From: a virus
Virus record (IMG/VR): IMGVR_UViG_3300023202_000068
Coordinates: 32,001-96,000 of that record
Strand: one strand, 5' to 3'
DNA: 64,000 nucleotides
Shown here piece after piece: positions 2,530 through 28,666 of the stretch. The translations under genes were made by a program, and so were the position numbers. A model generated the notes under the pieces. It searched no databases. It saw only the letters and a program-made list of their open reading frames with translations, and was not told where the DNA came from. Position 1 is the stretch's first letter, and each line of letters starts with the position of its first letter.

Positions 2530-3426
2530 ATGTCCAAGAAAATTAAGACTATTATAGATACTTCTTCGATGCCAGAGGTTAAATTTAGCCTCGACGCACA
2601 GGAGAAGTTTGGTCGCAGTCGCGGTGTCATATTTGAACACTGGTCTGCTATACCATCCCCTATAGGACTCAAAGACCGTGGAGACTACCGAAGGTCAGAT
2701 ACGCTGGATACTATTTCAGAAAATGGCTTTATATATAAGAAGGTTGGTTGTTTTGTGGCGACCATTGTGGGTAACGGTCACCAGAATCAGCACAACGGTC
2801 CTGCAGAAGCCGGTATTTACGACAATAGCACAGCTAGAATTATCATACCCAAGTTTTATGAGGACACTGATCAAAAAAAAGAAATTTCTCTGCTTCCAGG
2901 CGACCGAATATACGCAAGAGATATAGAGCTGAATGTTGAGAACTATCAAAGGGCAGAATATAACCCTAACTCTTCGGACTTCTTACAGTTTCCAGCTAAA
3001 TGCGTTAGTAGACTGGTAGACTCAAAGGGTATTGAGTACACAGAGGGTAGAGATTTTAAGATCAATCGAGATGGAAATGTTCAATGGATATCTGGAAAAA
3101 AGAACCCTGGTATTGACCCAGAAACGGGCAAGGGCAGGATATACTCTATTAGATACGAGTATACAGCCTTCTGGTATATCCAGCAATTGATTAATGAGAT
3201 AAGAATTACCAATACCGACGACGCTGAGAGCCCAGCACGTATGCCATACCACGCTATGGTACAAAGAGAATATGTTTACCACAACCAGAACCGAAAAAAA
3301 CCTGCTGAAACTGAAGAAAAAGTTACAAGAAAGACTGAGCCTACTCGTAAAAACCCAGAGCCTCGTGAAGATATTGAGCCTAACCAGCCAGAAGTACAGG
3401 TAGACCTGAGGAATTTCACAGAGTAG
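2530..3426 (+). CDS. putative neck/head-completion protein
   Basis: Position before the sheath; beta-rich; contains YTEGRDFKI...GNVQW...YSIRY, resembling neck proteins of large myophages. Confidence 0.5.
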   Translation: MSKKIKTIIDTSSMPEVKFSLDAQEKFGRSRGVIFEHWSAIPSPIGLKDRGDYRRSDTLDTISENGFIYKKVGCFVATIVGNGHQNQHNGPAEAGIYDNSTARIIIPKFYEDTDQKKEISLLPGDRIYARDIELNVENYQRAEYNPNSSDFLQFPAKCVSRLVDSKGIEYTEGRDFKINRDGNVQWISGKKNPGIDPETGKGRIYSIRYEYTAFWYIQQLINEIRITNTDDAESPARMPYHAMVQREYVYHNQNRKKPAETEEKVTRKTEPTRKNPEPREDIEPNQPEVQVDLRNFTE

Positions 3427-4840: not shown

Positions 4841-6049
4841 ATGCAAGAAATATATGTAGCTATCAACGGTGACGATGTAGGAAATTCAATAGGTTCCGCT
4901 ATTGCTTCTGACGATAGGGAATCACTTGGCTCTACAACCTCCACTTTAAAAGATATACATTCGCAAATTGACCAGTGGGTTGAGCAGTGCGGTGGTGAAG
5001 TTGTAACTTCTTCAGGAGATGAAGGTATCTATAAGGTACCACATGAGTGTGCTGATCACCTAGAGGATATTCGAAGTGAGTATCAAGAGCACACAGGGCA
5101 CACATTGACTATTGGTGTTGGCCAGAGCATGTCTGAAGCTGCCAAAGCTTTGATCTATGGAAAAATGAACAACAAAGACCAGATTGTAGAGTATGCACCT
5201 GAAATGGACGAAGCTATTTCAAGTGAAACTGGTGAAATGGGCACTCAAGGATACGAGCAGCAAAACGAAGGTAAACTTCCTGCAGAAGAAGAAATGTCTT
5301 ATCAAAAGGAAAATGCTGCTCAGCAAGAAGCTAGTATGGCTGAAGAGCCCGATGAAGACATGGTTGAAGAAGACGGTGAAGGCGAAGCTGATAAAGATGC
5401 CGAAGAGATCATTGAAGAAGCCTCTAATGACCCAGAGCATGAAAAAGACATGACTCCTGAAGAAGAGCGCGAGCATGATGCTGCAGAAAATGAGCTTGAT
5501 GAAATGGATGACGATATCGTTGAAGCCGATGAAGAGGCTAATATGGAAGGTATCGACGGCGAAGCTGGTGAAGAAGACATGCAAGTTGATGAAGATGAGA
5601 ATATGGAAGAAGAACCTGAAGCTGACGAAGGTGATCACGAAGATTTATTAGCCGAAATGGTTCATGCTCATATGTCTGGTGAAGAAGATGAAGAAATGCC
5701 AGAAGAAGAGATGATGGAAGAAGAGGTGCCTGAAGAAATGCCAGAAGAAGAGATGATGGAGGAGGACCAATACAGTGACGAAGAAATTGAAAACTTACGT
5801 GCTGATATTGCTCATTCTTTAAACTCCTTTAAGGCAAATAGAGAAATGATCTTGCAAATGCAACAGGCAAGTCCTGAAATGTACGAGAGCTTAATGGTAA
5901 TGCTAAGATCTATGATCGCTATGGGTAGACATATGGGTTTTGACGCTGAACAGGCTGCTGATGAACAAATGTCTGAAGCACAGGCACAAGAAGAAATGCC
6001 TGAAGCTGCTCCAGAAGGTCAACCAATGGCGATGTCTGAAAAAAAGTAG
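4841..6049 (+). CDS. mCpol (minimal CRISPR polymerase/GGDEF-like palm) domain protein with long acidic C-terminal region
   Basis: First ~118 aa: YVAINGDDVG...SSGDEG...TLTIGVG.SMSEA.KAL.YGK..NKD, matching the mCpol pattern as I recall it; followed by ~280 aa rich in E/D/M. Confidence 0.7.
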   Translation: MQEIYVAINGDDVGNSIGSAIASDDRESLGSTTSTLKDIHSQIDQWVEQCGGEVVTSSGDEGIYKVPHECADHLEDIRSEYQEHTGHTLTIGVGQSMSEAAKALIYGKMNNKDQIVEYAPEMDEAISSETGEMGTQGYEQQNEGKLPAEEEMSYQKENAAQQEASMAEEPDEDMVEEDGEGEADKDAEEIIEEASNDPEHEKDMTPEEEREHDAAENELDEMDDDIVEADEEANMEGIDGEAGEEDMQVDEDENMEEEPEADEGDHEDLLAEMVHAHMSGEEDEEMPEEEMMEEEVPEEMPEEEMMEEDQYSDEEIENLRADIAHSLNSFKANREMILQMQQASPEMYESLMVMLRSMIAMGRHMGFDAEQAADEQMSEAQAQEEMPEAAPEGQPMAMSEKK

Positions 6050-6090
6050 CAGGGGTAGGTCGTGGACCTAAAGATCCCATGAGCCTACCC
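6040..6090 (+). promoter_or_regulatory. candidate programmed -1 ribosomal frameshift signal
   Basis: A_AAA_AAG (6040-6046) directly before the TAG stop; 6 nt later a stem GGGTAGG (6053-59)/CCTACCC (6084-90); the -1 frame is open into ORF 6079..6354. Confidence 0.75.
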
Positions 6091-6354
6091 GACAAAGCCG
6101 CCAAAAAAATACCTAAAAAGCAAGCTCCAGTTGGTGCACAACGCGGTAATAAGCTTAAAGTATTAGATGGTGACACAGGTAAAGTTAGGTGGAGAAAAGG
6201 TACTAAGGGTTTCTTGAGAGACTATGACGGTGACCCTGTTAGTACAAATTACACGGCTAGGTATTTAAAACCTAAGCCAAAACACAGCCCACATATGGGG
6301 GGAAAGCGCAGACACGATCCACACATGGGTGACCGAGACGGCGCTTATCAATAA
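6079..6354 (+). CDS. basic polypeptide, probably made as the -1 frameshift extension of the mCpol protein
   Basis: K/R-rich; its own ATG lies inside the hairpin and lacks a good SD. Confidence 0.6.
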   Translation: MSLPDKAAKKIPKKQAPVGAQRGNKLKVLDGDTGKVRWRKGTKGFLRDYDGDPVSTNYTARYLKPKPKHSPHMGGKRRHDPHMGDRDGAYQ

Positions 6355-6362
6355 GGGATAGA

Positions 6363-7124
6363 ATGGCAAACTTTGATTTATTATTTGAAATAGATGTCGA
6401 AGATATGTCAAAAGATCTCGGTGAACTCAAAGAGATGATGCAAAAAGATCTCACCGAGGGAGTCCAGGCTGTCGCTTCTATGACACACGCAAAGACACTA
6501 GAGCTTGCTAGAGACGAGCTTAATAGTCTATCTTCAATGTACCAGGACAACGTAGAATTTGAACATCCTGAAAAAGGAATGTGGGTAGTTACGATTAAAA
6601 ATCCAGCTATGTGGATTGAAGAAGGACGTAAGTCCGGTTTTATGGAAGAGCTGTTGAACGGCAAGTCCAGTAAAGTCAACGCCAAGGGTGAAAGATACGC
6701 AGTTATACCTTTTAAGCATAATAAGAATCCAAGCGAACAGTCGGCTAAAGCACAAGAGTTAGCTGGACAGATTAAGTCTGCTATGAAAGATAAGGGATTA
6801 AGTGTAAAAAAACTTGAGCTTAATCAAGACGGTAGCCCTCGTATTGGCAAACTTCATTCTTTTAATGTAGAAAGTGCAAGACTTAAGCCTCACCATAAAG
6901 ATCCTGCTACTTACGGCGTTAGTGTTTATCAAAATAAAATGCCTGACGGTACCGTGAGAAGAGATGTAATGACTTTTAGAGTGATTACGGAAAAACACAA
7001 AGAAGAGGGCAAGTGGGTTCATCCAGGTAGACAGGGCTCTAAGATTCTTGATAAAGCTTTTGATTGGGCTATGCAGACTTGGGAGCGAGAAATTCTACCA
7101 GGAATATTGGAGAGTTATAAATGA
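6363..7124 (+). CDS. putative neck/tail-completion protein (HK97 gp10-like)
   Basis: AMWIEEG...RYAVIPF...FRVI...WVHPG pattern typical of myophage neck proteins; synteny. Confidence 0.55.
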   Translation: MANFDLLFEIDVEDMSKDLGELKEMMQKDLTEGVQAVASMTHAKTLELARDELNSLSSMYQDNVEFEHPEKGMWVVTIKNPAMWIEEGRKSGFMEELLNGKSSKVNAKGERYAVIPFKHNKNPSEQSAKAQELAGQIKSAMKDKGLSVKKLELNQDGSPRIGKLHSFNVESARLKPHHKDPATYGVSVYQNKMPDGTVRRDVMTFRVITEKHKEEGKWVHPGRQGSKILDKAFDWAMQTWEREILPGILESYK

Positions 7125-8134
7125 GACCATATCCTTGCATAACAGGTATTTTTCAAGGTGACTTGATCATCAAGACTGCTATTGAGCTGTCCATTGAAGA
7201 CATACGAAAAAAACCATGGCTTATAGAAGATATGTTCGGCAGCCTTATTGAAAACCCATACCTAAAAGTCAAATATGGTATGAAGGAAATAGACAGGGCT
7301 AAAGAGTTTCTATTAAACAATGACATACCAGTATACATGAGACATAGAGTTGATAAGCAAGAATTTCCTTGCGTAACCATATCTATTGGTAATTCTCAAG
7401 AAGACAAGTCTCTAGCCACTCTAGGTGATCAATCCCCATATTTTGAAGAGTACGGAGCTGATGAGATCGGACAGCCTATTAAATACATTATACCACCTTT
7501 TGATCCGGTATCATATGATACTGCTACAGGAATTATAGAGGTACCAGAATCTGTTACAGACTACAGATTTATTAGTGAAGGTATGGTAGCTGTTGACCCT
7601 GAAACTGGTAATGGCTACATTATACAGGGTAAGGCTGGAACCAACGGTTTTCGAATATCCACTGGAGCTAACATAGCTGGTAGACTAGGGGTTGTGCCTC
7701 AGTTTCAAGTGTACAGGGCTAGACGTGAGCGTGCAGGTTCACAGGAGACATACAACATTGGATGCCATACACATGGAGACCCATCTACAGTCATATTTCT
7801 ATATGCTCTTGTAAAATATTCACTATACAGATACAGAGAAGGTCTGATAGAGGCCAGCAACTTTCAACTATCCAATCTTACATCTACCGATATGATTAAG
7901 AACGGAGCTTTTGATGTTGAAAATGTCTACTCTCGATTTATTACACTGAGTGGGCAAGTTGAAGAGAGTTGGGTTAAAGCCCCACACCGGAAGATTGAAG
8001 CTGTAGATATTATAGATCCAACAGAAGATGAAGGCCTTAGACAAGGTATTAAGATATTAAGTAACAGTGAACCTCCTAACCAGGATGAATGTGAAATGGT
8101 AAGGGTAATAGAAGATGAAGATTCGAATGAATAG
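7121..8134 (+). CDS. putative tail terminator/tail-completion protein
   Basis: FPCVTIS motif and YSRFITL near the C-terminus; lies upstream of the sheath. Confidence 0.5.
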   Translation: MRPYPCITGIFQGDLIIKTAIELSIEDIRKKPWLIEDMFGSLIENPYLKVKYGMKEIDRAKEFLLNNDIPVYMRHRVDKQEFPCVTISIGNSQEDKSLATLGDQSPYFEEYGADEIGQPIKYIIPPFDPVSYDTATGIIEVPESVTDYRFISEGMVAVDPETGNGYIIQGKAGTNGFRISTGANIAGRLGVVPQFQVYRARRERAGSQETYNIGCHTHGDPSTVIFLYALVKYSLYRYREGLIEASNFQLSNLTSTDMIKNGAFDVENVYSRFITLSGQVEESWVKAPHRKIEAVDIIDPTEDEGLRQGIKILSNSEPPNQDECEMVRVIEDEDSNE

Positions 8135-9732: not shown

Positions 9733-11877
9733 ATGGCACAAAGAATTAGTACATCGTTTATCAATACTAACAGGCCAGGTGCTTACTTCGATGTTCAAGT
9801 AAAGTCTACTCCTGTAGGTGTTGCAAGCTCAGGTAATATCATAATTATCGGTGAAGCTGCTGGTGGAGCTGCTGTTGCAGGAATCGATTCAGCAGAAGGT
9901 GATTTGCTAAAAGACAACTTTTTCACACCTGATCAGGTTGATAGAGTTGTTGCAAAATATATTAGTGGTCCAATTGTTGATGCTTTTAGAGCACTTTCAT
10001 CTCCTAGCTCTGATGCAAACATTTCTGGTTCTGCAAATAGAATTTACATTGCTAAAACGAACACTGGAACACGAGCCTCTGCGACTATCGCAAGTGCTTA
10101 CGGAACAATTCGAGATAAGAACTACGGAATTGATGGTAATAAATACTCTTTTAGTATTTCTCAGTCAATTGACGAAGAAGCCCCACAGATTACTGGTTCA
10201 GTAATCGCATCTTTTGGAGCGGCACTTGACGGTGACTTCAGAATGAGAATTGACGGTGGTGCTGAAATTACTGTAACAATTGCATCAAGTCCTGCAGATA
10301 TGACAGATCTTCTAACAGAACTTAACGGTGGTGCTTTGCCAGCCGGAGTGACTGCTACAGAGGGCACTGCTGCTGACAGCTTGACGCTAACATACGACGC
10401 AGATGCTGCGGCTAACAGTAAAGGAAGTGGTAAGTCTATCGAGCTTATTGAGGATTCTATTTTAGCTGCCCTTGGACACTCAGAAGGACTTGTAGTTTCT
10501 TCTGCTGAGCCTGAGGTTCAAGTTGATATCGTAAGACAAGACACTGGAATTAACGAGTCTTTCTTGGCTGAAGCTCAAGTTGCATTGAGAATTGGCTACG
10601 AAGGAACAACTGGAACTATAGATATTACAGACTCTAGCTTGACTACTACTGTAACTGGTGGTTCTGGAACTAACTTGAACATTAACTTGTCAGAGTATCC
10701 TTTGATGTCAGACTTGGCTGAGTTTATCAACTCACAAACTGGTTACACTTGTGTAGCTACCCCTGGGGCATCTCAAACTTCTCCTGTATCTCTTGACGAC
10801 GTTACAGGTGTTGGAATTGCTTCAAGTGATGCTGGAATCCTACCTGGTCGAATTAAAATTTCAACTCTTAGGTTTGAACAAGCAATAGGTCAATCTGCAG
10901 TATTAGATTTTATCTTAACTGCCGATGAAGGTCTACCAGAAGTTGCATCTAGTCAGTTTTTGACTGGTGGACAGCGCGGTGGAACTCTAGCTGCTGATTT
11001 TGTTACAGCTTACACAGACCTAGAGGGTATTGATGTAAACTTTGTAATTCCTTTGATCTCAAGAGATGCTTCTGCAGATATTCTTGACGGTCTAACGGAC
11101 TCTAGCTCTACTTATACAATTGCTGCTGTAAACGCTCTTACAAAAAGCCATGTACTTAAAATGTCTACGGCTAAACTTAAGAAGCACAGAACGGCATTTT
11201 GTAGTTTTGACGGTTCATACTCAGATGCAGTTGCTCAGGCTGGTTCACTAGCTAACCAACGTGTGTCGCTTTGTATGCAAAGAACTAGTCAGGTTAACGC
11301 TGTAGGGGCTGTTGTTAACTTTCAACCTTGGCACACCGCATGTATTGCTGCTGGTATGCAGGCTGCTGGTTTTTACAGATCTATCACAAACAAATTTGCA
11401 AACGTAATTAGCTTTAGCGACCCATCAGGTTTTGACTCTGGTAGCCCTGGAGATATTGAATCTGCTCTTGATGCTGGACTTCTTTTTCTTGAAAAAGCAG
11501 TTGTTGGTAACAAGTGGGTTTCCGATCAAACAACTTATGGAATTGACACAAACTTCGTTTACAACTCAGTTCAAGCTATGTATGCTTCTGATCTAGTTTC
11601 ACTTGATCTTGCAGACAGCTTTCAAACTGCCTTTGTTGGTCAGTCTTTGGCTGATGTAGATGCTTCTACTGCCTTGTCTTTCTTGGCTTCTAAAATGGAT
11701 GCATTTAAAAAACAAAAGCTTATAGCTGCTTCTGACGATGCCCCTCTTGGGTTCAAGAATGCTCGTGTAAGAATCAATGGTCCAATTATGGAAGTTGGTG
11801 TAGAAATTAAGCTTGCTACGGCAATCTTATTCATTCCAATTAACATTGAAATCAGTCAAGTACAAAGCGAAGCTTAG
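9733..11877 (+). CDS. contractile tail sheath protein
   Basis: 714 aa; N-terminal RPGAY and IIIGEAAGG; C-terminal sheath domain ending VEIKLATAILFIPINIEI; followed by the tube gene. Confidence 0.9.
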   Translation: MAQRISTSFINTNRPGAYFDVQVKSTPVGVASSGNIIIIGEAAGGAAVAGIDSAEGDLLKDNFFTPDQVDRVVAKYISGPIVDAFRALSSPSSDANISGSANRIYIAKTNTGTRASATIASAYGTIRDKNYGIDGNKYSFSISQSIDEEAPQITGSVIASFGAALDGDFRMRIDGGAEITVTIASSPADMTDLLTELNGGALPAGVTATEGTAADSLTLTYDADAAANSKGSGKSIELIEDSILAALGHSEGLVVSSAEPEVQVDIVRQDTGINESFLAEAQVALRIGYEGTTGTIDITDSSLTTTVTGGSGTNLNINLSEYPLMSDLAEFINSQTGYTCVATPGASQTSPVSLDDVTGVGIASSDAGILPGRIKISTLRFEQAIGQSAVLDFILTADEGLPEVASSQFLTGGQRGGTLAADFVTAYTDLEGIDVNFVIPLISRDASADILDGLTDSSSTYTIAAVNALTKSHVLKMSTAKLKKHRTAFCSFDGSYSDAVAQAGSLANQRVSLCMQRTSQVNAVGAVVNFQPWHTACIAAGMQAAGFYRSITNKFANVISFSDPSGFDSGSPGDIESALDAGLLFLEKAVVGNKWVSDQTTYGIDTNFVYNSVQAMYASDLVSLDLADSFQTAFVGQSLADVDASTALSFLASKMDAFKKQKLIAASDDAPLGFKNARVRINGPIMEVGVEIKLATAILFIPINIEISQVQSEA

Positions 11878-11902: not shown

Positions 11903-12370
11903 ATGGCAGGAACACCACAAACAGTAATGACAGGCGCACGAGCCAAAGTCTATGTTGACGATGTCTTAGTTGGTATCTTCGATAGTGTTAACTACGCGGT
12001 TAACATTGGTGCTGAGCCAATGTTTATCTTAGGTCGCTACAGTGCTTCTGAAATCACACATACTTCATACGAAGCGGTAACTGTAAACTGTTCAGGATTT
12101 AGACTTATTGGTAATGGTGGTCATGTACTACCAAAAGTACCTAAGGTTGAAGACTTGCTGCAGCTTGAATATGTTACACTAGCTGTAATTGACAGGCAAC
12201 AGACTGATAGTAATCCTATCTTAACAGTAACTAACTGTATACCTATTAGTTATTCAACTGGATACCAGGCAAAAGCTACTTCTAGAATTCAGGTTACATA
12301 CCTTGGAACCATTGCTTCTGACGAAGACGGGGCACAAGACGAATCACCTGGAGCAGTTAGCCTACCATAA
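11903..12370 (+). CDS. tail tube protein
   Basis: 155 aa directly after the sheath; TGARAKVYVD...ILGRYSASEI. Confidence 0.85.
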   Translation: MAGTPQTVMTGARAKVYVDDVLVGIFDSVNYAVNIGAEPMFILGRYSASEITHTSYEAVTVNCSGFRLIGNGGHVLPKVPKVEDLLQLEYVTLAVIDRQQTDSNPILTVTNCIPISYSTGYQAKATSRIQVTYLGTIASDEDGAQDESPGAVSLP

Positions 12371-27117: not shown

Positions 27118-27863
27118 TGAATAAGGACAATGTATTAGACAAGATCAAGAAACTACTAGCACTTGCAAACTCTTCAAACGAGCACGAGGCTAAAGCAGCC
27201 AGTGCACGTGCACATGCACTTCTTACAAAATACAACCTTACCATGGATGACGCGGAAGCTTTAGATAGAAAGTATACTGAAGAGTTTTGCTCAACAGGTA
27301 GACAGAGAATGCCAATGCAGTGGAAGTTTGTACAAAGTCTTTTGCGTGAGTTCTTCTATATTGAGATTGTACAAACTAAGAGAAGAAAGAAGTCTGAGAC
27401 TTTAGAAGAGATGCTAGGTCCTATCAAACTTGAGATCTGCTACCTAATGTTTGGTAAAGCCCACAACATAGAAGTGGCTAAGTATATCAGAGACTTCCTA
27501 ATGCGTGCTTTTGAAGACTCTTTCAAGTCATACCGCAAAGAGACTGGAGCACCAGCTAAGGCTAAGCAAAGTTACTACATAGGTTTGTATCAGGGTTTGC
27601 AAGAGCAACTAATAGATGCTAGGGGAGAGGTCGAACAAGAGACTGGACTTGTGGTTGTTCCCGATGCTGATCTTAATGACTTTGTAGAAAACTCGTTTAA
27701 CAATAAGCTAACCACAAGGAATAGCAATAAAGTAGTGATAGATAAGCAAGCTATGTCTGCAGGATATGAAAAAGGTAAAGATATGAGCATTGCTAGAGGC
27801 CTTGGCGGAAGCTCTTCCAAGCAGGTAAGGAGCACTTTGAGGCTTGGAGGAAGCAATGGGTAA
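27117..27863 (+). CDS. DUF2786 domain protein
   Basis: LDKIKKLLALANSSNEHEAKAASARAHALLTKYNL. Confidence 0.85.
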   Translation: MNKDNVLDKIKKLLALANSSNEHEAKAASARAHALLTKYNLTMDDAEALDRKYTEEFCSTGRQRMPMQWKFVQSLLREFFYIEIVQTKRRKKSETLEEMLGPIKLEICYLMFGKAHNIEVAKYIRDFLMRAFEDSFKSYRKETGAPAKAKQSYYIGLYQGLQEQLIDARGEVEQETGLVVVPDADLNDFVENSFNNKLTTRNSNKVVIDKQAMSAGYEKGKDMSIARGLGGSSSKQVRSTLRLGGSNG

Positions 27864-28222
27864 ATGTGGATTCTGCGACATACCGTGCGGTAATTCGCAC
27901 TGTGCGTTCAATACAGATAATAAAGACGTGACCAAGGTGAAGTTGTTTAAAAACACAATAAGTTTCACTCGTGATGGCGCTGAGGTTAGTATTGTGGTAA
28001 AATCTACCAATAAGCTAGCATTAGCTGAGGTGGAAGATTTATTGAGAAGCGTCAAGCGTGATGCTGGAATATCTTGTGAAGAAAAAAACTATTGAAGTAT
28101 TGGTGGAGGAATAAAATGCCATTAACATTTCATGGCAGTGAAGTTACTGCCACGCAACTATTTTTTCTAGCGCAATTGTTCGTACCATTTGCAGTCTACT
28201 TCTTATGGACTTTCTTTAACGA

Positions 28223-28666
28223 GTGGAAGAGGCAGAGATGAATAGCTTGCTAATTAGAGCTAGTTTTGTTATGCTTGTAATCATTACAGTGCAACACGAC
28301 ACATTTAAAGAGGTATACAAGGTGTTTACTAAAGATTACGAAGCTGAGGCTAGAGGTAAGTTGTGCGCTGAAGTCATGGCGATGGAAGACATGTATAAGA
28401 CTTACGCTAGAAATTTATATATTAGAGGCTGTCAAGTTGCCTACGCAAATATGCAGTTTGAAATGTTTACAGCAATGGCTGGTGGTAAGGCTACTGAAGA
28501 GCATAGGAAAAAGTATTTTGAGATAATTAACGATGAAGAAACACCTGAACACGAAGCTATGATGAACTGGTGTGGCAAGGCAGCTTCAAAGTATGAGTTG
28601 GACAATAAAGATCAAATGGTTATGACTTGGCACTTAAAGGAGAAGATGTGCTATGAGCAGGAGTAA
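28223..28666 (+). CDS. hypothetical protein with N-terminal hydrophobic segment
   Basis: ORF track. Confidence 0.5.
   Translation: MEEAEMNSLLIRASFVMLVIITVQHDTFKEVYKVFTKDYEAEARGKLCAEVMAMEDMYKTYARNLYIRGCQVAYANMQFEMFTAMAGGKATEEHRKKYFEIINDEETPEHEAMMNWCGKAASKYELDNKDQMVMTWHLKEKMCYEQE

Follow-up and report, generated by a model that had tools for sequence, protein, structure and literature searches.

Does the stop codon of a phage gene for an acidic mCpol protein mark the end of its only product, or do some of the ribosomes that reach it change frame and continue into the next open reading frame (ORF)? The question is raised by a locus in a 64-kb stretch of DNA (here called the window) that comprises bases 32001-96000 of the IMG/VR record IMGVR_UViG_3300023202_000068, an uncultured virus of 153,539 bp with an estimated completeness of 96% and a G+C content of 40%. 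At this locus, an ORF of 402 amino acids (aa) at positions 4841-6049 ends on the sequence A_AAA_AAG, a predicted hairpin follows, and a small ORF of 91 aa at 6079-6354 begins within that hairpin. Altogether, comparison of this site with its relatives makes it very probable that the locus encodes a programmed -1 ribosomal frameshift of the dnaX/IS3 type, situated on the two sense codons that precede the stop of a phage late gene, by which a basic C-terminal domain would be added to a fraction of the acidic protein.

Anatomy of the shift site

The 0-frame ORF (4841..6049, plus strand) encodes a protein of 45.0 kDa with a calculated isoelectric point (pI) of 4.05 and the C-terminal sequence ...SEKK-stop. 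Residues 5-118 match the mCpol palm domain PF18182 (E 1.8e-15) with 57.7 bits, which is above the gathering cut-off of 26.4 and places the protein in the mCpol family; the first metal-binding position of the domain (window 4841-5200) is occupied by Asn. The domain is followed by an acidic region of ~280 aa with 105 Asp and Glu residues, out of 126 in the entire protein, and the protein also has a short conserved segment that looks helical.

The 3' end of this ORF reads TCT GAA AAA AAG TAG. The slippery heptamer A_AAA_AAG (6040..6046, plus strand) is in the X_XXY_YYZ phase, in which both Lys tRNAs can re-pair on AAA AAA, and the 0-frame stop TAG (6047..6049, plus strand) abuts it, forming the first half of a spacer of 6 nucleotides (nt; 6047-6052) between heptamer and hairpin. 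Just upstream of the heptamer, a TGA (6037..6039, plus strand) shuts the -1 frame, which opens exactly at the heptamer and is stop-free over 6040-6354 to the TAA at 6352-6354. The 0 and -1 frames overlap only at 6040-6049, and these ten bases are the heptamer and the stop. Read from the TGA at 6037-6039 through AAA AAA GTA GCA GGG and on to GAT CCC ATG, the -1 frame gives KKVAGVGRGPKDPMSLPDK. The extension that would be translated after a slip (6046..6354, plus strand) has 102 codons and the TAA, a pI of 10.3 and 24 Lys and Arg residues, and is laid out as a variable linker, VAGVGRGPKDPMS, followed by a conserved basic domain with the core LPDK...PxG...GKxKVLDGDTG..WR.G..G..RDYDGDP.S (6085..6246, plus strand).

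The predicted stimulatory hairpin (6053..6090, plus strand) is formed by pairing of the 5' arm GGGTAGGTCGTGG (6053-6065), across an 11-nt loop (6066-6076), with a 3' arm made up of CCATGA (6077-6082) and CCTACCC (6084-6090), giving 13 bp with one G-U pair and a 1-nt bulge. The annotated start of the 91-aa ORF, the ATG at 6079..6081 (plus strand), is fully paired in the upper stem, and the 3' arm contains the codons of the conserved Leu-Pro in the LPDK motif with which the basic domain begins. The calculated folding energy is -21.0 kcal/mol compared with -12.05 +/- 2.62 kcal/mol for shuffled sequences (z -3.42), and one of 200 shuffles equalled it. The window therefore has the elements of a -1 cassette, that is, a heptamer in phase, a 3' structure within ~5-9 nt and an open, conserved -1 frame. 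An upstream Shine-Dalgarno (SD)-like stimulator, an element specific to dnaX that lies ~10 nt 5' of the heptamer, was not found in the window (-1.9 kcal/mol versus a gene background of -2.5 kcal/mol); in the relatives introduced below, the corresponding values range from -0.6 to -8.3 kcal/mol, track GAG/GAA-rich acidic coding sequence and are not conserved.

By itself, A_AAA_AAG is common, with nine in-phase copies in the ~18,700 codons of the window. The entire arrangement is rare: a scan of both strands of the 64 kb, in which a heptamer had to be preceded by 80 or more open codons and followed by a 0-frame stop no further than 25 codons away and by a -1 frame without stops over 50 or more codons, yielded only two frameshift-like sites, at 6040 and at 28083. 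The latter (28083-28241), in which A_AAA_AAC and a hairpin end an 83-aa ORF (27844-28095) and a 49-aa hydrophobic ORF lies in the -1 frame, was rejected as an ordinary gene overlap, the downstream ORF having its own GGTGGAGG and an ATG at 28117.

A preliminary description of this DNA, made from the sequence without database searches, had noted the in-phase heptamer within the terminal GAA AAA AAG TAG, a stem-loop six nt after it and a -1 frame that runs into the ORF at 6079..6354, whose ATG lies within the hairpin. All of these features are borne out by the analysis above, and the two isoforms of 402 and ~504 aa that it put forward compute to exactly 402 and 504 aa, the longer one having a mass of 56.2 kDa.

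Conservation of the signal in split relatives

The INPHARED phage collection, queried at the DNA and protein level with the locus and the 91-aa ORF, returned no match, and neither did single-sequence scans of IMG/VR. A protein search with the -1 product identified four homologues with 51-65% identity, alignment-based scans of IMG/VR and JGI metagenomes added eight further loci, and an exhaustive profile search with the basic domain returned 54 proteins, from which four more distant split loci were taken. The comparison comprises 15 distinct lineages in which the gene is split into two ORFs (the window, L002, L005-L011, L013, L015, L021, L023, L025 and L026). The small-ORF proteins of the ten nearest lineages are 41-64% identical to that of the window. 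Among the split relatives, eight complete upstream ORFs were scanned or are already recorded with a Pfam hit, and each of the eight matches mCpol; the motifs [IL]N[GA]D[DNS]VG and [SA]SGDE are kept in all split lineages as well as in L018, a relative with a fused gene that is described below.

All 15 split lineages have the small ORF shifted by -1 against the upstream ORF and an in-phase X_XXY_YYZ heptamer that is separated from the 0-frame stop by 0, 3 or 12 nt; in all of them, no stop interrupts the -1 frame between the heptamer and the conserved domain. A downstream hairpin is likewise present in each of them; it begins 3-7 nt after the heptamer (5-6 nt in the 11 nearest lineages), with energies of -9.7 to -21.1 kcal/mol and z-scores of -0.7 to -5.0. 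The heptamer is A_AAA_AAG in 13 lineages and G_GGA_AAG in two (L015 and L025). When all heptamers were compared in E. coli, C_CCA_AAG, G_GGA_AAG and A_AAA_AAG gave the highest efficiencies in the presence of a stimulator (Sharma et al., PMC4066793). The two motifs found here are thus two of the three best, and the family therefore switches only between optimal motifs.

Several features of the site suggest selection on the RNA signal rather than on the encoded protein. The two G_GGA_AAG lineages encode Gly-Lys in place of Lys-Lys, and the codon that precedes the heptamer varies (GAA, GGA, GCA, CAA, TTA, CCA, AGA and others), its last base always fitting the pattern. Between the heptamer and the stop there is one codon in L006 and L013 and there are four in L011, with the distance from heptamer to stem kept. 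Lys-Lys is hence not the conserved feature at the shift site. Synonymous sites of the downstream domain are saturated, with a mean third-position identity of 0.43 at identical residues, and while invariant Lys columns mix AAA and AAG (4:7 and 8:3), the AAA-AAG at the shift site is fixed.

The composition of the heptamers also bears on the possibility that the frame is changed during transcription, with RNA polymerase stuttering on the A7 run at 6039-6045 and adding an A, so that in-frame fusion mRNAs arise. The product would be nearly identical, seven consecutive A are present in the window and in L002 and at least six in the other A_AAA_AAG lineages, and a run of 11 A lies just upstream in the fused relative L018. 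However, the runs on which polymerases are reported to slip efficiently are generally of ~9 or more; the run here is A7, and it is A6-A7 in most relatives, while the two G_GGA_AAG lineages have only three A. Moreover, a polymerase needs neither a hairpin at ribosome-entry distance nor a codon phase. We therefore regard transcriptional slippage as a highly improbable source of the longer product.

The stem, similarly to the heptamer, varies in sequence while its pairing is retained. Its 3' arm consists of the codons of the conserved Leu-Pro (LPDK) and of the variable residue that precedes them, and the non-conserved 5' arm changes alongside the synonymous choices made there, giving outer arms such as GGGTAGG/CCTACCC, GGCAGAC/GTCTGCC, GGCAAGG/CCTTGCC, GGCAAAC/GTTTGCC and GGCAGT/ACTGCC, among others. 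In an alignment of 11 sequences, 87% of the cells in the stem are paired compared with 77% in shuffles (0 of 500 as high) and 21-55% when the partner is slid, and three stem pairs have compensatory changes on both sides. The 3' arm is used in three pairing registers, with the 5' edge of the stem at a constant distance from the heptamer; in L026, the most distant lineage, which has a longer linker, the hairpin stays beside the heptamer and not beside the domain. Conservation and covariation of the kind looked for in a -1 frameshift cassette are thus both observed, and the check that the preliminary description had named, conservation of heptamer and stem in related phages, comes out in its favour: heptamer, phase, spacing and stem are kept in all 15 split lineages, with compensatory changes.

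These data leave next to no probability for a chance arrangement, a sequencing indel or a decaying pseudogene that lacks functional recoding. In-phase A_AAA_AAG is admittedly frequent in this AT-rich genome, as the nine copies in ~18,700 codons illustrate, and homopolymer runs are prone to indel errors; but 15 lineages, assembled independently by different assemblers from different samples, have the same split and the same signal, purifying selection acts on the downstream domain, whose invariant columns are encoded by varying codons, and the stem covaries.

Initiation at the downstream ORF

Alternatively, the locus might consist of two ordinary genes, the 91-aa protein being made by independent initiation or by termination-reinitiation at ATG 6079, with the hairpin as a coupling device and the heptamer as nothing other than the codons of a Lys-Lys C-terminus. 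Gene callers annotate the small ORF separately, the stop and the ATG are just 29 nt apart in the window, and an ATG stands two codons before the conserved Leu in six of the 11 nearest lineages. The SD match before ATG 6079, however, is at background level: at -3.0 kcal/mol it is close to the value for random positions (-2.2 kcal/mol), compared with a median of -6.4 kcal/mol for 46 other ATG genes, and it ranks 40th of 47.

The relatives bear on the same point. An ATG is missing in at least six of the 15 split lineages. L006, L010, L011, L013 and L021 have no in-frame ATG and a TTG as the sole candidate start; in four of these five, this TTG encodes the conserved Leu of LPDK. L008 is devoid of ATG, GTG and TTG codons ahead of the conserved domain. 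Because several lineages lack a start of their own, independent initiation cannot be the general route to the basic domain. Nor would two separate genes account for a -1 frame and an X_XXY_YYZ phase in 15 of 15 lineages, including the two with G_GGA_AAG, which does not encode Lys-Lys, or for an AAA AAG pair that is fixed though other invariant Lys codons vary; Lys-Lys is not C-terminal in L006 and L013 (one extra codon) or in L011 (four), and relatives with an in-frame fusion exist. An arrangement of two ordinary genes is therefore very unlikely in our view, and under the frameshift reading ATG 6079 would be an internal Met of the long isoform.

Relatives with a fused gene

The basic domain is fused in frame, in the same N-to-C order, in four relatives: P0011, P0038, P0056 and WNM70340.1 of Myxococcus phage Mx1. 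P0011, from the close relative L018, has 588 aa with the mCpol domain, the acidic region and the basic domain in one frame; it matches the basic-domain profile with an E-value of 1.6e-26 and keeps the NGDDVG and SSGDE motifs. The linker of L018 is without the hairpin (-4.3 kcal/mol, z -0.2). The hairpin thus goes with the need for a shift: the split relatives have it and the in-frame fusion lacks it. At L018:1725-1760, an A11 run (TTA AAA AAA AAA ATA) is followed by a relic in-phase A_AAA_AAG, again with no hairpin. As a separate matter, this A11 run could cause transcriptional slippage and thereby give rise to shortened forms, in which case two isoforms would be generated by the opposite route.

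The more distant fused forms have 412 aa (P0038), 304 aa (P0056) and 468 aa (Mx1 WNM70340.1, OR576727.2). The Mx1 gene is syntenic with the window gene and lies upstream of the tail sheath. Both of its parts align, the N-terminus with the mCpol domain of the window (BLASTP 9e-13) and the C-terminus with the basic domain (BLASTP 0.008, hhalign 1.4e-4); it differs from the window gene in being one continuous ORF with no frameshift, in having lost the NGDDVG and SGDE motifs and in an mCpol Pfam match that remains under the cut-off (21 versus 26.4 bits). The mCpol-like motifs are lost in all three distant fused forms (Mx1, at L016:9964-10340, P0038 and P0056), which are below the Pfam cut-off or unmatched. 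In these natural fusions, as predicted from their genes, the two parts form one polypeptide. A word-indexed search for longer forms found no fusion, which reflects its limited sensitivity, as the exhaustive profile search did find them. A tree of the N-terminal domain (13 rows, none omitted) has support for one of its ten inner branches and very long branches for the three distant fused rows, and it favours neither fused nor split as the ancestral state and neither direction of change.

Proposed mechanism and comparison with known recoding systems

In our model, ribosomes translating the mCpol-acidic ORF would arrive at A_AAA_AAG with Lys tRNAs on AAA in the P site and on AAG in the A site. 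At this point the 13-bp hairpin, with its base 6 nt downstream, would be located at the mRNA entry channel and slow translocation, and a fraction of the ribosomes would slip back by one base, their tRNAs re-pairing on AAA AAA. Non-slipping ribosomes would terminate immediately at TAG 6047-6049 and yield the 402-aa acidic protein (45.0 kDa, pI 4.05), while slipped ribosomes would read GTA GCA GGG and onwards through the hairpin and the 91-aa ORF to TAA 6352-6354, yielding a product of 504 aa (56.2 kDa) with a 102-residue basic C-terminal domain of pI 10.3. Slipping itself and its efficiency we infer from the anatomy of the signal. Because the SD-like element of dnaX is not conserved here, we expect an efficiency that would be lower than that of dnaX yet substantial. 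Signals for -1 frameshifting elsewhere yield a few percent to tens of percent, and by analogy to their behaviour the ratio of the two isoforms may, as the preliminary description suggested, be fixed.

The site resembles E. coli dnaX, the source of tau and gamma, in having the same heptamer, a simple 3' stem-loop at a similar distance and two products from one gene. For dnaX, AAAAAAG, a 5-nt spacer and an 11-bp hairpin support 50-80% shifting (PMC8861025), compared with a spacer of 6 nt and a hairpin of 13 bp in the window. The two systems differ in several respects: the dnaX slip shortens the protein, gamma ending soon after the shift, whereas the slip in the window would add a domain of 102 residues; the 0-frame stop in the window follows directly after the heptamer, unlike in dnaX; the efficiency of dnaX relies also on the upstream SD-like element, which is absent in the window; and the dnaX gene is unrelated to the mCpol-acidic gene of the phage.

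With orfA-orfB of IS3/IS911 elements, from which type of system the motif ranking cited above derives (PMC4066793), the locus shares A_AAA_AAG followed by a structure close to where the upstream ORF ends, a fusion that joins two domains and a -1 ORF without an efficient start of its own. Unlike these elements, the window gene encodes no transposase, has a plain hairpin instead of the IS3 pseudoknot and has a small basic domain downstream.

Two phage systems also invite comparison. In the G/GT gene pair of lambda, also a late gene, a minority of the molecules likewise acquire a C-terminal domain through a conserved -1 slip; the lambda heptamer is G_GGA_AAG, the motif that occurs in two of the split lineages here. 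The lambda frameshift is not known to need a 3' structure, and its protein family differs from that of the mCpol-bearing protein. The position of the gene in the window is also not that of a tail assembly chaperone gene, as it lies upstream of the neck and sheath genes and not between those for the tube and the tape measure. In T7 gene 10A/10B, ribosomes slip by -1 right where a gene of the late structural module ends, so that a fraction of the molecules receives a C-terminal extension; this system differs from the present locus in that the shift site is another one, the stimulator is distant and the extended protein is the major capsid protein.

Genomic setting and further features of the locus

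The mCpol gene lies in the late virion module of the window. Upstream of it are a large multi-domain ORF (3-1655) and a gene with the PHROG annotation virion structural protein (2530-3426, phrog_1004); downstream are a terminator-like gene (7121-8134; PF23932 with 25.9 bits, just under the cut-off of 27), the tail sheath gene (9733-11877, phrog_279) and a candidate tube gene (11903-12370) that was matched only as a PHROG virion structural protein. Aligned over 93% of its length, the sheath shares 41% identity with its counterpart in Mx1, a phage of 169.6 kb, and the surroundings of the mCpol gene are in shared order. Because the G+C content is 40%, Myxococcus is unlikely to be the host of the window phage. 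On the 102.9-kb contig L021, a gene resembling GIY-YIG/NUMOD1 homing endonucleases (L021:3546-4316) lies on the opposite strand just downstream of the homologue of the neck gene; it is absent from the corresponding place in the window.

The acidic region contains a near-perfect tandem duplication at window 5640-5770, in which EEMPEEEMMEEE is encoded twice, and its length varies strongly among relatives, the upstream ORFs ranging from ~400 to ~820 aa. It is bordered by ...EAISSE/TG (5210-5225) and ...PMAMSE/KK (6026-6040), and near the C-termini of relatives are GKSE (L008), EKSE (L013) and EKSE (L026). If such SE borders were real prohead-protease sites, the basic tail could be removed after assembly.

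For the basic domain, Pfam and PHROGs gave no family match. An AlphaFold2 model of the -1 product built from an 11-row alignment has one beta-hairpin and a predicted local distance difference test score (pLDDT) of 63 with a predicted template modelling (TM) score (pTM) of 0.32, and was not used for fold searches; a search of the ESM Atlas with the domain gave no usable feature match, and all structure matches were below a TM-score of 0.5.

Discussion

The preliminary description had proposed a dnaX/IS3-type -1 shift, and this proposal is supported by the conserved signal, by the relatives without an ATG and by the in-frame fusions. Some points weigh against it. An in-frame ATG two codons before the conserved Leu occurs in six of the 11 nearest lineages and in nine of 15 overall, which is above chance, and where this ATG exists a free 91-aa protein may be made as a minor product by independent or coupled initiation. 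The z-scores of the hairpin are weak in five relatives (-0.7 to -1.7), and as no SD-like stimulator is conserved upstream, the efficiency of shifting may be modest. The lineages share ancestry, and their counts are not fully independent of each other. Finally, support comes from sequence comparison centred on an IMG/VR record of an uncultured virus, and the behaviour of the Lys tRNAs at the heptamer would depend on the host.

What might the longer isoform do? We speculate that a sub-stoichiometric fraction of the acidic protein, which is probably associated with the virion, may be anchored by the tail either to an acidic partner or to DNA; binding of either is a guess from the composition of the tail. 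A possible part in DNA binding or packaging had also been suggested in the preliminary description. The mCpol family is known from the bacterial Panoptes guard, in which mCpol is combined with a 2TM-beta or CARF-TM effector (PMC12657218, PMC12657230, PMC13577387). The window gene has no membrane effector adjacent to it, its neighbours being phage virion, neck and tail genes, and phage-encoded mCpol is not mentioned in two of these papers (PMC12657218, PMC12657230); a literature search on phage Mx1 found no paper. In a more daring scenario, which we consider unlikely, the frameshift would set the stoichiometry of a putative virion-packaged mCpol nucleotide synthase: most copies would be free and acidic, and in a fixed minority the basic domain would serve as a tether to the capsid, the portal or the packaged DNA. 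The enzyme would then be injected together with the DNA and would produce immune-type cyclic nucleotides at an early stage of infection, for instance so that Panoptes-like guards stay silent.

The mechanism is a textbook one, while the mCpol gene family is, as far as our literature searches showed, new for recoding, and the locus adds a well-supported phage frameshift outside the tail chaperones. The comparative evidence is unusually clear, combining switches between optimal heptamers, covariation of the stem over three registers, loss of start codons and natural fusions that have no hairpin. As to annotation, the 'hypothetical protein' of 91 aa and the numerous relatives that databases list as stand-alone proteins are most likely not genes of their own but the C-terminal domain of a longer isoform, and the Mx1-like phage family would hence be mis-annotated at the mCpol locus. 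Finally, the recoded protein keeps the NGDDVG and SGDE motifs of mCpol, a domain so far known from the bacterial Panoptes guard, and its predicted two-isoform design constrains models of how phages might use such an enzyme among their virion genes.

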